From Planctomycetota bacterium (lineage in GTDB: Bacteria > Planctomycetota > UBA11346), in NCBI GenBank assembly GCA_038231435.1, contig JBBRLJ010000030.1, positions 8,087 through 72,086 on the forward strand: a stretch of DNA of 64,000 bases, given 5' to 3'. A model generated the notes under the pieces. That model saw nothing but the letters and a program-made list of their open reading frames with translations, had not been told where the DNA came from and did not search any database. Each line of letters opens with the position of its first letter. Position 1 is the stretch's first letter. The translations under genes and the position numbers were made by a program. Positions 18,547-23,607 of the stretch are shown one piece after another.

Positions 18547-21276
18547 CTATTCCAATCCGGCCAACGTCTCCTTGAGATTCGCCAGCTCGACCTGCTCCTT
18601 CGCCAGCAGTCCCCTGGTATCGGCGACTTGTTCCGGCGGCGCTGCCCTGATGTAGTCCGCGTTCGCCAGGCGGCCCTGCTTGCCGGAGATGCTCTTCTCC
18701 TTGCCGGCGATCTGCTTGACCATGTTGGCCTTCAGCTTCTCGAGATCGATCACCCCCGACAACGCGACGTGCAGCTTCAGATCCCCGATGACCTCGGTGA
18801 CGCTGGTCGCCGGCTTCGCCAGGCCGGCGCCGATCTCGATGCCGAGCAGATTGCCGCGATCGATGAGGAAGTCGCGGTGCGACGACAGCCCCTGCGCGCG
18901 CGTGGCGTCCGGTGCCGCGACGACGACCGTGAGCTTGGTGCCGTCGGGCAGGTTCTGCTGGTTCCGGATGTTCCGCACGGCGGTGACGATGCGCTGCAGC
19001 TCGTCCATGCGCGGCGCGATCATGGCGTCGGCGAACCGCGATTCGGGTTCGGGAAACTCAGAGACCATCAGGAACGACGTCCACGCGGCGCCGCCGGCGG
19101 TGGTCTGCAGCTGCTGCCACAGGTATTCGGTAATGAACGGCATGCCGGGGTGAAGCAGGCGCAGGACCTTGTCGACGGCGTACCACAGGACCGTGCCGGC
19201 GGCGGTGGCCGCCGGGCCGCCGGCCTTGAACTGGCGTTTCGCCCATTCGACGTACCAGTCGCAGAGGTCGTCGCGGAAGAAGCGGTAGCCGGCGTTGGCG
19301 TAGTCGTTGAAGCGGAACGCCTCGAGCGCGGACGAGCAGTCGGCGATGGCGGTCTGCAGACGGTCGAGCAGCCAGCGTTCCTCGAAGCCCAGCTGCAGGG
19401 CAGCGACGTCGGATGCCGTCGGCGGTTTCGCGAGCGGGCGCTCGGAGAGGTTCATCAGCAGGAAGCGTCCGGCGTTCCACACCTTGTTGGCGAAATTTCG
19501 CCCGGTCTCGAACTTGGTCGGATTCAGCTTCAGGTCCTGACCTTCGGTGGTCATGTCCAGGAGCGTGTAGCGCAGCGCGTCGGCGCCGTAGCCAGAGCAT
19601 TGGTAATCCTTGCCCAGATAGCGCTGCGTGCCGCCCTCGATCATCACCAGCGGATCGATGCCGTTGCCGAGCGACTTCGACATCTTGACCCCGCGCTCGT
19701 CGAGCACGGTGCCGTGGATGTACACGTCCGAGAACGGCTTCTTGTCGAGCGCGAACAGGCTCGCCATGACCATGCGCGCGACCCAGAAGTAGATGATGCC
19801 GCGATCGGTGACCAGGGTCGAGGTCGGGAAGTAGCGCGCGAGCTCGGGCGTGGCCTCGGGCCAGCCGAGGGTGCTGAAGGGCCACAGCGCCGACGAGAAC
19901 CAGGTGTCGAGCACGTCTGGATCCTGCGCCAGGTCGCGCGCGCCGCAGTGCGCGCACGTCGATGGAGCGTCGATGCCGACGGTGATCTGCTTGCAGGTGC
20001 CGCAATACCAGGCGGGGATGCGGTGCCCCCACCAGATCTGGCGCGAGATGCACCAGTCACGGACGTTCTCGAGCCAGTTGCAGTAGACCTTCGTCCAGCG
20101 CTCGGGGTGGAAGGCGACGGCTCCGCTGATCGTCTCGGGCAGAGCGCGCGCCGCGAGGGGGCCCATCTTCACGAACCACTGCTCGGTCACCATCGGCTCG
20201 ATGGGCTCCTTCGAGCGCTCGCTGTGGCCCACTGCATGGGTGATGTCGGTGACGCCGAGCAGATCGCCCGATGCCTCGAGCTCCTTGAGCAGGGCCTTGC
20301 GGCAGGCGAAGCGGTCCATCCCGGCGAAGTGCTTGGCCTCGGCGGTCATGCGGCCATCGAAGCCGATGACCTGCAGCAGCCCGAGTTGGTGGCGCTTGCC
20401 GACCTCGTAGTCGTTCGGGTCGTGCGACGGAGTGATCTTCACCGCGCCGGTGCCCTTTTCGGGATCGGCGTGGTCGTCGGCGACGATGGGGATGTCGCGG
20501 CCGACGATCGGCAGGCGAACGCGCTTGCCGATCAGCGCGCGGTAGCGCTCGTCCTTCGCGTTCACCGCGACCGCGAGGTCGCCGAAGAAGGTCTCAGGCC
20601 GGGTGGTCTCGACCTGGATCTCGTCGACTCCGGCGATCGGGCCGCCGACCAGGCGGTAGCGCAGCTTCCACATGTGGCCCTGGACCTCCTGGACGATGAC
20701 CTCGTCGTCGGAGAGCGCGGTCTTCAGCACCGTCGACCAGTTCACCATGCGCGTGCCGCGGTAGATCAGGCCAGCGTCGTAGAGGTTTTTGAACTGCGTG
20801 CGCACCGCGCGCGACAGTCCCTCGTCCATGGTGAAGCGTTCACGGCTCCAGTCGCACGACGAGCCGAGCTTGCGCAGCTGGGTGGTGATGATGCCGCCGG
20901 ACTGCTCCTTCCACGCCCACACGCGTTCGATGAACCGGTCGCGGCCGAGCGCCTCGCGCGTGGTCGATTCCTCCTGCAGCTGCTTCGCGACCACGGCCTC
21001 GGTGGCGATGCCGGCGTGGTCGGTGCCGGGCTGCCACAGCGTGTCGAAACCCTGCATGCGCCGCCAGCGGATCAGCGTGTCCTGCAAGGCGTTGTTGAGC
21101 GCGTGGCCCATGTGCAGGACGCCGGTGACGTTCGGCGGCGGGATCGCGATCGCGTAGTGCGGCTTGCCCGGCCGCTTGCCGGCGCCCGCCTTGAAGCAAC
21201 CGCCCTCTTCCCAGCGCCGGTAGACGTCGGACTCGATGGCTTTGGCGTCGTAGGATTTCGGCAGTTCGAGGGCCAT
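18547..21276 (-). CDS. valS: Valine--tRNA ligase
   Basis: PPPNVTGVLHMGHA, TTRPET, GTGAVKITPSHD, DWCISRQIWWGHRIP, KMSKSLGN, C-terminal coiled coil. Confidence 0.98.
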   Translation of the reverse strand: MALELPKSYDAKAIESDVYRRWEEGGCFKAGAGKRPGKPHYAIAIPPPNVTGVLHMGHALNNALQDTLIRWRRMQGFDTLWQPGTDHAGIATEAVVAKQLQEESTTREALGRDRFIERVWAWKEQSGGIITTQLRKLGSSCDWSRERFTMDEGLSRAVRTQFKNLYDAGLIYRGTRMVNWSTVLKTALSDDEVIVQEVQGHMWKLRYRLVGGPIAGVDEIQVETTRPETFFGDLAVAVNAKDERYRALIGKRVRLPIVGRDIPIVADDHADPEKGTGAVKITPSHDPNDYEVGKRHQLGLLQVIGFDGRMTAEAKHFAGMDRFACRKALLKELEASGDLLGVTDITHAVGHSERSKEPIEPMVTEQWFVKMGPLAARALPETISGAVAFHPERWTKVYCNWLENVRDWCISRQIWWGHRIPAWYCGTCKQITVGIDAPSTCAHCGARDLAQDPDVLDTWFSSALWPFSTLGWPEATPELARYFPTSTLVTDRGIIYFWVARMVMASLFALDKKPFSDVYIHGTVLDERGVKMSKSLGNGIDPLVMIEGGTQRYLGKDYQCSGYGADALRYTLLDMTTEGQDLKLNPTKFETGRNFANKVWNAGRFLLMNLSERPLAKPPTASDVAALQLGFEERWLLDRLQTAIADCSSALEAFRFNDYANAGYRFFRDDLCDWYVEWAKRQFKAGGPAATAAGTVLWYAVDKVLRLLHPGMPFITEYLWQQLQTTAGGAAWTSFLMVSEFPEPESRFADAMIAPRMDELQRIVTAVRNIRNQQNLPDGTKLTVVVAAPDATRAQGLSSHRDFLIDRGNLLGIEIGAGLAKPATSVTEVIGDLKLHVALSGVIDLEKLKANMVKQIAGKEKSISGKQGRLANADYIRAAPPEQVADTRGLLAKEQVELANLKETLAGLE

Positions 21277-21367
21277 GGGATTCCAATTCGAGGAGGCGGG
21301 AAAATCGTACGGACAAATACGCGAGCAAAGAGCCGAATCGGAACATCTCCAGCCATCTCGGTTCCCC

Positions 21368-21420
21368 GCTTCCTGGGGGGCAGGCCGGAGGCCGATGTTG
21401 GGGGGCCGTAGTCCCCCAAC
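21368..21420 (+). repeat. Small GC-rich palindromic (REP-like) element
   Basis: GCTTCCTGGGGGGCAG ... CGATGTTGGGGGGCCGTAGTCCCCCAAC; inverted near-identical copy at 23530-23607. Confidence 0.75.
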
Positions 21421-21444
21421 AAAAAAACGGCCCGGAAAGGCCGC
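21421..21444 (-). terminator. Intrinsic terminator of the valS leader (attenuator 3:4 hairpin)
   Basis: Minus strand GCGGCCT-TTCC-GGGCCGT followed by TTTTTT. Confidence 0.8.
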
Positions 21445-21473
21445 CTCGCGCGTTGAGCGAAGACGCCTCCCGG

Positions 21474-21515
21474 TCAGGTGGTGACGACTACCGATACCGA
21501 GGTTGGCGCGCGCAT
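21474..21515 (-). CDS. Putative valS attenuator leader peptide MRAPTSVSVVVTT
   Basis: ATG CGC GCG CCA ACC TCG GTA TCG GTA GTC GTC ACC ACC TGA; 4 Val in 5 codons just upstream of the terminator and valS. Confidence 0.72.
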   Translation of the reverse strand: MRAPTSVSVVVTT

Positions 21516-21568
21516 GACCGGGACGCTATCGCCCTCGTGCGACGCGACAAGCCCGCGGGACCGCTCCC

Positions 21569-21970
21569 TCAATTGCCCCAGCCCTTCATCGGCCGCCCAT
21601 GGCTGTTGGCGTCGCGCTTGACCCAATCTGCTGGCGCCACGACCACGCGATCGCCGGCGCGCGGCGGCTTCTTGCCGACGTTCCATTCGTCATAGGGCAG
21701 CGTCATGGTCTCACCCTGGTGGGGGCCGCTCAAGACCTCGACCTCGATCAGATGGCTGACGTTCTCGTCGCGGTCGACGTCCATGCCCTCGGCGACCTGG
21801 TCCCAGACCTTGACGACGCGCATCTCGCGCGGCTCGGTGTCCTGGATGGCCTTGGCGCGCGGCGTCGGGGCCACGCGCGGGCTGTTGCAGCCGACGAGGC
21901 CGCCGGAAACGCATGCGGCGATGGCCACGAGCAGGAAGGCGTGGGAGATGAGGATCAGGATCCGCCGCAT
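21569..21970 (-). CDS. Hypothetical lipoprotein with small beta-rich domain
   Basis: MRRILILI..GGLVGC lipobox-like signal. Confidence 0.65.
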   Translation of the reverse strand: MRRILILISHAFLLVAIAACVSGGLVGCNSPRVAPTPRAKAIQDTEPREMRVVKVWDQVAEGMDVDRDENVSHLIEVEVLSGPHQGETMTLPYDEWNVGKKPPRAGDRVVVAPADWVKRDANSHGRPMKGWGN

Positions 21971-22088
21971 GTGTTCAGTCTTTTCTTGAGTTCGCCCGCT
22001 GCCAACCGATAAGTGCCCCCCGCCCTCGTCCCGAGGAGGGTACCCGACCCTCCGCCGACCCGCACGGTCCATCTGCATCAGGAAGTCC

Positions 22089-23513
22089 ATGTCCCACGAT
22101 CCGCTTTCCCAGTCCAGCTCCAAGGCCAATGCCGGTTCCCATGCAGGAAGCGCGATCGGCTCGGCCCATGGCGCTGGCGCCATGAACGGCGTCGCCCAAT
22201 CGCTCAACCCGATCGCCGAGCAGGCCAACGCCGCCTTGGCCAAGGACTGCCCCGTGGTGCTGTCGCTGCTGAGCCAGCTGGGCAGGCGCATGTACTTCCC
22301 GACCAAGGGCATCCTCGCCCAGGGAGCCGAGGCCAAGGCCAAGGCCAAGCGCTACAACGCCACCATCGGCATCGCCACCGAGGGCGGCGGCCCCATGCAC
22401 CTGGCGAGCGTGCACGAGTGCTTCGCACCGTCGATGAAGCCGGCTGACCTCTACAGCTACGCGCCGTCGGACGGCAAGCCCGAGCTGCGCAAGGCCTGGG
22501 CCGAGAAGCAGCGCGCCGAGACCCCGTCGCTCGCCGGCCACCCGACCAGCCTGCCGGTGGTCACCAACGCGCTGACCCATGGGCTGTCGTTGCTCGGCGA
22601 CCTGTTCCTCGACGCCGGCGACGAGGTGCTGGTCACCGACCTGATGTGGGAGAACTATCCGCTCTGCTGGGAGACCCGCCAGGGCGCGCGCATCGTCACC
22701 TTTCCACTCTTCGACAAGCGTCTTTCCGGATTCAATCAGGACGGTTTCATGCAGGCGCTCGCCGCGCGGCGCGGCAAGAAGCTGGTGGTGGTGCTGAACT
22801 TCCCGAACAACCCCTCGGGTTACAGCCCCACCCGCGGCGAGGCGGGCGCGATCGTCAACGCGCTGATCGCCGCGGCCGAGGCCGGCACGCGGCTGGTGGT
22901 GGCATGCGACGACGCATACTACGGCATGTTCTTCGACGAGCAGGTCGAGAAGGAGAGCCTGTTCGGCCGTCTCGCGCGCGCCCACGACAACCTGCTCGCG
23001 GTCAAGATCGATGGCGCCACCAAGGAGGAGTTCGTCTGGGGCCTGCGCGTCGGGTTCCTCACCTATGCGGTGAAGAACGGCACGCCCGCGGTCTACACCG
23101 CGCTTGAGCAGAAGACCGGCGGCCTGATCCGCGCCACCATCTCGAACGTCAGCCACGCCAGCCAATCGATCGTGCTGCGCGCCCTGACCCATCCGGATTT
23201 CCGCAAGCAGCAGGCCGAGAAGGTCGAGATCCTGCGCCGCCGCGCCGCGGTGTGCGCGATCGAGAGCCGCAAGCCCGAATACGCCGACTGCTGGGACGTC
23301 TATCCGTTCAACGCCGGCTACTTCATGTGCGTGCGCGTGAAGGGCGTGAAGGCCGACGCGGTGCGCCTGCGCCTGCTCGACGAGCACGGACTCGGGACCA
23401 TTGCGCTGGGCGAGACCGAGCTGCGCGTGGCGTTCTCGTGCCTCACCGAGGAGCAGATTCCGGACGTCTTCGCGCGCATCGCTCAGGGCGTGCGCTCGAC
23501 TCGCGGCTCTTAG
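22089..23513 (+). CDS. PLP-dependent aminotransferase class I/II
   Basis: NATIG, LNFPNNPSGY, CDDAY, KIDGATKEEFVWGLRVGF; start could be about 30 codons later. Confidence 0.9.
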   Translation: MSHDPLSQSSSKANAGSHAGSAIGSAHGAGAMNGVAQSLNPIAEQANAALAKDCPVVLSLLSQLGRRMYFPTKGILAQGAEAKAKAKRYNATIGIATEGGGPMHLASVHECFAPSMKPADLYSYAPSDGKPELRKAWAEKQRAETPSLAGHPTSLPVVTNALTHGLSLLGDLFLDAGDEVLVTDLMWENYPLCWETRQGARIVTFPLFDKRLSGFNQDGFMQALAARRGKKLVVVLNFPNNPSGYSPTRGEAGAIVNALIAAAEAGTRLVVACDDAYYGMFFDEQVEKESLFGRLARAHDNLLAVKIDGATKEEFVWGLRVGFLTYAVKNGTPAVYTALEQKTGGLIRATISNVSHASQSIVLRALTHPDFRKQQAEKVEILRRRAAVCAIESRKPEYADCWDVYPFNAGYFMCVRVKGVKADAVRLRLLDEHGLGTIALGETELRVAFSCLTEEQIPDVFARIAQGVRSTRGS

Positions 23514-23529
23514 TTGGGGGCTGCTTTCA

Positions 23530-23607
23530 GTTGGGGGGCTACGGCCCCCCAACATCGCGCTGCCCCTACCGACCGGGGCCTTACGCCGCCGCTGCCCCCC
23601 AGGAAGC
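23530..23607 (-). repeat. Small GC-rich palindromic (REP-like) element, inverted copy
   Basis: GTTGGGGGGCTACGGCCCCCCAACATCG ... CTGCCCCCCAGGAAGC is the reverse complement of the 21368-21420 ends. Confidence 0.75.

Follow-up and report, generated by a model that had tools for sequence, protein, structure and literature searches.

A candidate leaderless leader-peptide attenuator upstream of valS in a class of Planctomycetota

In the window, i.e. the whole stretch of 64,000 nt analysed here, valS is preceded by a short Val-rich ORF and by overlapping alternative helices, and both are conserved with their spacing in related genomes. This element probably acts as a ribosome-operated, leaderless leader-peptide transcription attenuator, which would raise valS when charged Val-tRNA is scarce. 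An earlier note on this DNA had already read the region as a Val-sensing attenuator. The conserved Val ORFs and the computed 2:3 and 3:4 folds support that reading, in which the response to valine is a prediction. The features are collected in Table 1.

In the proposed mechanism, a TTG/TAnnnT promoter would direct transcription from the leader ATG or a position adjoining it, and a ribosome would initiate on this ATG without a Shine-Dalgarno site. When Val-tRNA is ample, the ribosome would reach the stop codon and cover segment 2, whereupon the 3:4 hairpin would form and the U-run near 21421 would halt RNA polymerase. Under a shortage of Val-tRNA, the ribosome would be held up at Val codons, in this genome the two rare GTA codons; segment 2 would then pair with segment 3, the terminator would be blocked and valS would be transcribed. 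An untranslated leader, for example in read-through RNA from the upstream gene, would fold into 1:2 plus 3:4 and be terminated.

Table 1. Features of the valS leader region (window coordinates)
Feature	Position	Strand	Basis or remark
Leader ORF MRAPTSVSVVVTT	21474..21515	minus	Sequence; 13 codons, translation predicted
valS, valine--tRNA ligase, 909 aa, gene under proposed control	18547..21276	minus	NCBIfam PRK05729 and TIGR00422 above cut-off
Small gene 5' of leader, lipoprotein-like N-terminus	21569..21973	minus	By-eye reading; neighbour, outside the switch
Palindromic intergenic repeat copy, genome-wide type	21347..21420	minus	161 BLAST segments in this genome; outside the switch
Predicted -35 box TTGTCG	21545..21550	minus	TTG at same distance in 14/14 leaders with -10 box at 7 nt
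Predicted -10 box TAGCGT	21523..21528	minus	7 nt 5' of leader ATG; 17.2 bits, leave-one-out
Weaker -10-like hexamer TACGAT, possible basal valS promoter here	21304..21309	minus	5.4 bits, past terminator
Segment 1, inside ORF	21496..21509	minus	Computed ribosome-free fold; pairs with 21474-21463
Segment 2, antiterminator 5' strand	21457..21473	minus	Ribosome-footprint folds; cognate-versus-cross pairing test
Segment 3, antiterminator 3' strand plus terminator 5' arm and loop	21432..21449	minus	Core GGCGGCC invariant in 18/18
3:4 terminator hairpin plus T7 run	21421..21447	minus	Terminator-like site by prediction

The valine-rich leader ORF and its occurrence in the class

The leader ORF begins with an ATG at 21515 and ends with a TGA stop at 21474, as the earlier note had it, and four of its 13 codons are Val codons (GTA-x-GTA-GTC-GTC). 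The gene downstream had also been named correctly: its product scored 1116 bits against NCBIfam PRK05729 (cut-off 704), and the next PF00133 matches in this genome were other synthetases. Among the matches listed, the nearest named valS was that of a Planctomycetota MAG, with 67% identity. The distance between leader stop and valS start, given before as about 200 nt, is 197 nt, and the whole leader, including the translated-looking ORF, takes up about 95 nt. In most relatives the gap between leader and valS is 74-109 nt, and over the 18 aligned leaders it is 74-197 nt. It is wide in this genome because the genome-wide palindromic repeat was inserted after the T-run; this repeat was absent from the relatives' leaders. 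A second copy of it lies in the window near 23529-23556 (plus strand). Ribosome re-initiation by a close leader was rejected, as the gap it requires is about 10 nt (PMC4833913) and the gaps found are far from this value. GTA is rare in the long ORFs of this genome, where it makes up 3.2% of Val codons, and it is used for none of the 58 Val codons of valS. It accounts for two of the four Val codons in this leader, at Val7 and Val9, and for 13 of 78 across all aligned leaders.

The family sampled comprises 48 genomes, which is the whole class. The ValS N-terminus was matched in 43 of them and one locus cut at its start was left out, giving 42 upstream regions, 4 of which were shorter than 300 nt. 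A fixed rule (an ORF 6-25 codons long that starts with ATG or GTG and has three or more Val among the final 9, followed by a hairpin of -12 kcal/mol or lower), which was written after the first leaders had been inspected, was passed by 18 of the 42 regions, in 7 of 17 genera, and failed by 24. Val-rich mini-ORFs of conserved geometry in orthologous leaders, the main check suggested in the earlier note, were hence recovered in these 18 regions. When the same rule was applied to the leaders of 2657 long ORFs in this genome, with valS among the ORFs counted, 9 passed; 49 passed without the hairpin condition. The leader element is therefore conserved beyond chance. Among 84 valS regions from other lineages, from which a planctomycete locus that may be a family member (L031) had been left out, a Val uORF was present in 2 and was followed by a hairpin in 1. 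No Val uORF was found before tyrS in 29 family regions (30 of the 44 family loci were taken, one of them cut). Elsewhere in the phylum, 102 of the 125 valS matches were covered and none had this leader arrangement; under a looser rule, a Val uORF was seen in 5 of these 102 regions, in 1 of them with a hairpin.

The aligned set of 18 consists of 17 clear leaders and that of genome G018 with its single Val. Of the 202 non-start residues in this set, 78 are Val. A covariance model of the alignment gave 19 strong matches in the family, with E values of 3.8e-11 or better (next, 1.1e-4). These were the 18 training leaders and the leader of genome G050, which was found by the model built without it (E 5.5e-12) despite a repeat insertion; it has a GTG start and four Val/Ile codons in a row. 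Across 151 phylum genomes, with 26 candidates scored per genome and thus limited sensitivity, the best match outside the family had an E value of 2.5e-6, and none of the 22 outside-family matches inspected precedes valS. The model did not match any of the 84 valS loci of other lineages. Furthermore, a metagenome scan for the pattern (Val run, stop, spacing, hairpin with a 4-nt loop) returned 19 matches, none of them with valS in the available downstream DNA. They were rejected as new family members and read as gene ends or chance; the hairpin motif on its own is generic.

Decayed leaders were seen in genomes G008, G048 and G018. In G008 and G048 the promoter motif is kept and the Val run is gone, and by reading, the leader frame of G008 runs on through the hairpin. 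In a FastTree phylogeny of about 480 ValS residues, the leader is present on both sides of the family's first split, from which we infer an ancestral element with several later losses.

Alternative helices and the predicted terminator

The antiterminator (2:3) and terminator (3:4) helices drawn in the earlier note agreed with the folds computed for the ON and OFF states. With the Val codons covered, the pairing of 21473-21457 with 21449-21432 is the lowest-energy fold; in the fold without a ribosome, segment 2 is taken up by the segment inside the ORF, and the terminator is present. Folding with and without a ribosome footprint, which had been suggested as a check, gave the expected contrast. 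For this genome, in an equilibrium model with a footprint reaching 10 nt past the A-site codon, the terminator probability was 1.0 in naked RNA, 0.035 with Val7 and 0.022 with Val9 in the A site, 0.46 at Val11, and 1.0 again at Thr13 and at the stop. An energy gap between the stalled and the stop position appeared in 18 of 18 leaders at footprints of 9-15 nt and in 11 of 18 at 6 nt, and part of this gap is built in, since pairs are always lost when more bases are covered. Compared with spacer shuffles, the stalled-state antiterminator stood out at 5% in just 4 of 18 leaders, and the value for this genome was 0.06. Taken alone, the window did not go beyond chance either in folding (z = -1.28) or in its terminator-like sites (1 versus 0.6 +/- 0.8 in shuffles).

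Comparison between genomes revealed that the distance from the stop codon to the invariant GGCGGCC of segment 3 is 25-31 nt in all 18 leaders. The terminator hairpin is likewise kept in 18 of 18; its consensus has 11 pairs, of which 4 are invariant and 4 carry two-sided changes. In 200 draws of one genome from each of 8 genera, the cognate pairing of segment 2 with segment 3 and the loop was better than the pairing across genera (permutation test, median p 0.002, highest p 0.01), and by eye segment 2 and the variable terminator loop change together.

The third helix of the earlier note, 1:2, stood only in part: it can form in a computed fold, but its pairing was found in 1 of 18 leaders. Its first segment uses 8 nt before the ATG; these come after the predicted -10 box and before the point where transcription likely starts, at the leader ATG, so that most of the segment would lie outside the transcript. 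Only RNA that reads through from the upstream gene could contain such a helix. In the computed untranslated fold, its job is done by the alternative 1:2 helix inside the ORF, the register of which is not conserved between genomes.

On the minus strand, the GC-rich hairpin at 21447-21424 is followed by seven T at 21427-21421. Those parts of the classical attenuator anatomy that could be computed were all present, namely the cognate-codon ORF, an intrinsic terminator (in this genome and its congener), an antiterminator that excludes it, and the spacing. A clean U-run after the hairpin was found only in this genus; in the remaining 16 leaders the tail is interrupted, and the 12 nt that follow the core contain 3-8 T. 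One alternative is that Val-tRNA is sensed but that the hairpin, at any rate where the U-tract is weak, works as a pause or as a factor-assisted stop (NusA/NusG or Rho). The lack of an unbroken U-run in 16 of the 18 leaders would fit this, as would the presence of an encoded Rho in this genome and the published actinobacterial leaders, which in the texts of PMC1262725 and, for trpL2, PMC8079986 often lack terminator parts. However, a textbook hairpin plus T7 occurs in this genome and its congener, and the 3' ends of ordinary genes carry similar hairpins with similar broken tails. We consider such an output unlikely. The hairpin also leaves the ribosome-binding site uncovered, as tens of bases separate its end from the valS start.

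No Rfam family matched the window at gathering score, and 21250-21600 gave only four chance-level matches to other families. The element therefore belongs to no known RNA family, and its identity as a T-box riboswitch was rejected.

Promoter, transcript start and the upstream gene

In 14 of 18 leaders, TAnnnW stands at a distance of exactly 7 nt on the 5' side of the ATG, and the score of the leader -10 box in this genome was the best in the region. Across the genome, TAnnnT has a peak at 5-8 nt on the 5' side of long-ORF ATGs, with 200 cases at a distance of 6 nt, 119 at a distance of 7 nt and about 55-70 elsewhere, and leaderless genes accordingly look common in this genome. No Shine-Dalgarno site was seen before the leader ORF. 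Given the promoter motif 7 nt before the ATG and the genome-wide TAnnnT peak, the valS leader transcript likely starts at the leader ATG, i.e. it is likely leaderless.

The earlier note had considered the case of a valS transcription start downstream of 21421. Two sites bear on it: the leader promoter, at 17.2 bits, argues against such a start, and the weaker 5.4-bit site past the terminator leaves part of the objection standing. The latter hexamer has a family-like spacer and lacks a TTG at a suitable distance; a promoter score of 5 bits is attained at about 4 of every 10,000 positions of the genome. It is peculiar to this genome, since none of the other 17 leaders exceeds 1.8 bits downstream of the terminator. 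With valS transcribed from 21309-21304, the hairpin would merely end the transcript of the upstream gene here and the leader would be an inherited remnant. In line with this, there is no other terminator-like site within 21000-22200, the repeat was inserted after the U-run, and decayed leaders exist in the family. However, the leader promoter scores far higher, and the ORF, its Val codons, the spacing and the antiterminator are all intact. The upstream gene, which had no family match in NCBIfam or Pfam, precedes valS in 9 of 19 leader-bearing genomes and also, without this leader, in 9 of the 23 other family genomes; it was not detected before 10 of the 19 leaders, 2 of these 10 being at contig ends. 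We regard this explanation as very improbable. Least credible of all, to the point that we give it hardly any weight, is a general ribosome-speed gauge or nascent-peptide arrest signal in which the Val run acts as peptide and not as codons: leaders ending in Ser-Ser-Ala with the same hairpin and spacing do stand before unrelated small genes in six genomes, and several valS leaders end in Pro-X-stop, but apart from Val there is no conservation in the peptides, which are 9-15 long and draw on all four Val codons, and the residue in which they are enriched is that of the downstream enzyme.

Known attenuators and other leader-like elements

The attenuation mechanism is a textbook one, and the new points are valS as the target and the planctomycete lineage. 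In E. coli, the synthetase operon pheM-pheST is attenuated via the ribosome by its own charged tRNA. That system is gamma-proteobacterial and reads Phe, not Val, and the pheM leader has a 5' UTR, unlike the predicted leaderless valS leader. In Firmicutes, valS is among the synthetase genes with T-box leaders, which follow the same logic as would the valS leader, as uncharged tRNA raises synthetase expression by antitermination. However, a T-box binds the tRNA directly, whereas the valS leader has no Rfam match, is about 95 nt long and contains a translated-looking ORF. A list by Lopatovskaya et al. from 2010 reportedly includes hisS, pheST, trpS, thrS and leuS, but not valS. The main text of PMC1262725 names pheM-pheST as a precedent, describes the T-box regulation of Firmicutes synthetase genes and predicts attenuators for actinobacterial leuS and trpS; His leaders on hisS paralogues are described in PMC2965389. 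The words 'valS' and 'valyl' do not occur in the main texts of PMC1262725, PMC8079986, PMC4046766 and PMC2965389, and the text portions of PMC4046766 and PMC4974804 add no valS leader. In the literature searched, largely the main texts of freely accessible papers, we found no leader-peptide attenuator of valS.

Short leaders rich in the cognate amino acid likewise stand before synthetase genes in Streptomyces lividans, namely leuL2-leuS, trpL2-trpS, thrL-thrS and alaL-alaS (PMC8079986, text portions). The leaders before leuS and trpS are leaderless there, with further leaders before thrS and alaS, and leuL2 is followed by a hairpin and a U stretch (PMC8079986). They share the TAnnnT promoter type with the valS leader and differ from it in amino acid, gene and phylum; furthermore, the starts were mapped there and are predicted here (PMC8079986). 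In Corynebacterium glutamicum, the Val-containing leader of ilvL-ilvBNC begins one base from the transcription start, and here too an anti-antiterminator, an antiterminator and a terminator are formed, with GGC/GCC triplets swapping partners (PMC11857589, PMC10272879, text portions). That leader serves biosynthesis genes, reads Leu/Val/Ile and was tested by mutation (PMC11857589, PMC10272879), whereas the run in the valS leader is almost purely Val. The genome studied here has ilvB, so the organism can probably make valine; unlike ilvBNC of C. glutamicum, its ilvB has no comparable leader upstream, and neither has its ileS. Look-alike attenuator anatomy can mislead, since mutating look-alike regulatory codons upstream of ilvB in Streptomyces coelicolor had no effect (PMC1262725, main text).

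If the proposed mechanism holds, valS joins the synthetase genes under leader-peptide attenuation, the feedback of Val-tRNA on valS has been solved in a second way beside the T-box, and Planctomycetota gain a well-aligned attenuator example. The series of leaders with strong tails, weak tails, decay and loss would be a ready test of the need for a U-tract in a high-GC bacterium, and likewise of attenuation on leaderless RNA.

The Ser-Ser-Ala leaders share the hairpin and the spacing, and the hairpin scaffold is therefore also used without a Val run. This element (in this genome G000:C39:5821-5920, minus strand, L165/L396; also L382 in G008, L383 in G042, L386 in G046, L387 in G047 and L388 in G050) was found in 6 of 48 genomes with 14 identical bases. 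It has a promoter motif before a leader of 16-18 codons that ends in Ser-Ser-Ala-stop, and a segment 2 complementary to the loop of a valS-type hairpin. An ORF of 34-45 codons ending in His/Arg follows, overlapping a gene for a protein of 112-140 aa. A similar element occurs in G015 (L189). The Ser-Ser-Ala element may be the more novel of the two. It is conceivable, though we would stop short of calling it probable, that the class runs the first known leader-peptide attenuator of valS, that this attenuator goes back to the common ancestor of the class, and that it belongs to a set of leaderless switches which are built on one hairpin scaffold and terminate with broken U-tracts, the Ser-Ser-Ala-ending element being a second such switch that gates a two-gene operon.

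Several further upstream regions attracted attention. In this genome, a leaderless ORF with 3 Tyr, MPTVAAIAYYRPYRFD, lies 142-91 nt before tyrS (G000:C40, L230) and is followed by a hairpin and a T-run; it has the look of a Tyr attenuator. The idea that tyrS carries a Tyr leader throughout the family, in parallel to valS, was rejected, as such a leader was seen in 1 of 29 regions, that of this genome only. Before leuS (G000:C22) there is a short uORF with 3 Leu and a leaderless motif, and before a cimA-like gene (G000:C34) a short uORF with 2 Ile plus a hairpin. In G023 (C271:15046-15139, L190), a 9-codon ORF and a terminator-like hairpin lie 18 nt before a gene of the elongation factor G family, a possible ribosome-sensing leader. 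In G178, from another family of the phylum, a leaderless-looking 20-codon ORF with 3 Val near its end lies 205-142 nt before valS (L325); it had no hairpin by the fixed rule and is a possible independent Val leader. In genus g3, a conserved structured stretch upstream of valS (L008, L121, L123, L113) resembles by eye an opposite-strand cobalamin riboswitch, which would belong to a divergent gene. In several family ValS proteins (L016-L023, L028), split matches show an insertion of some 25 residues around position 105 relative to the ValS protein in the window.
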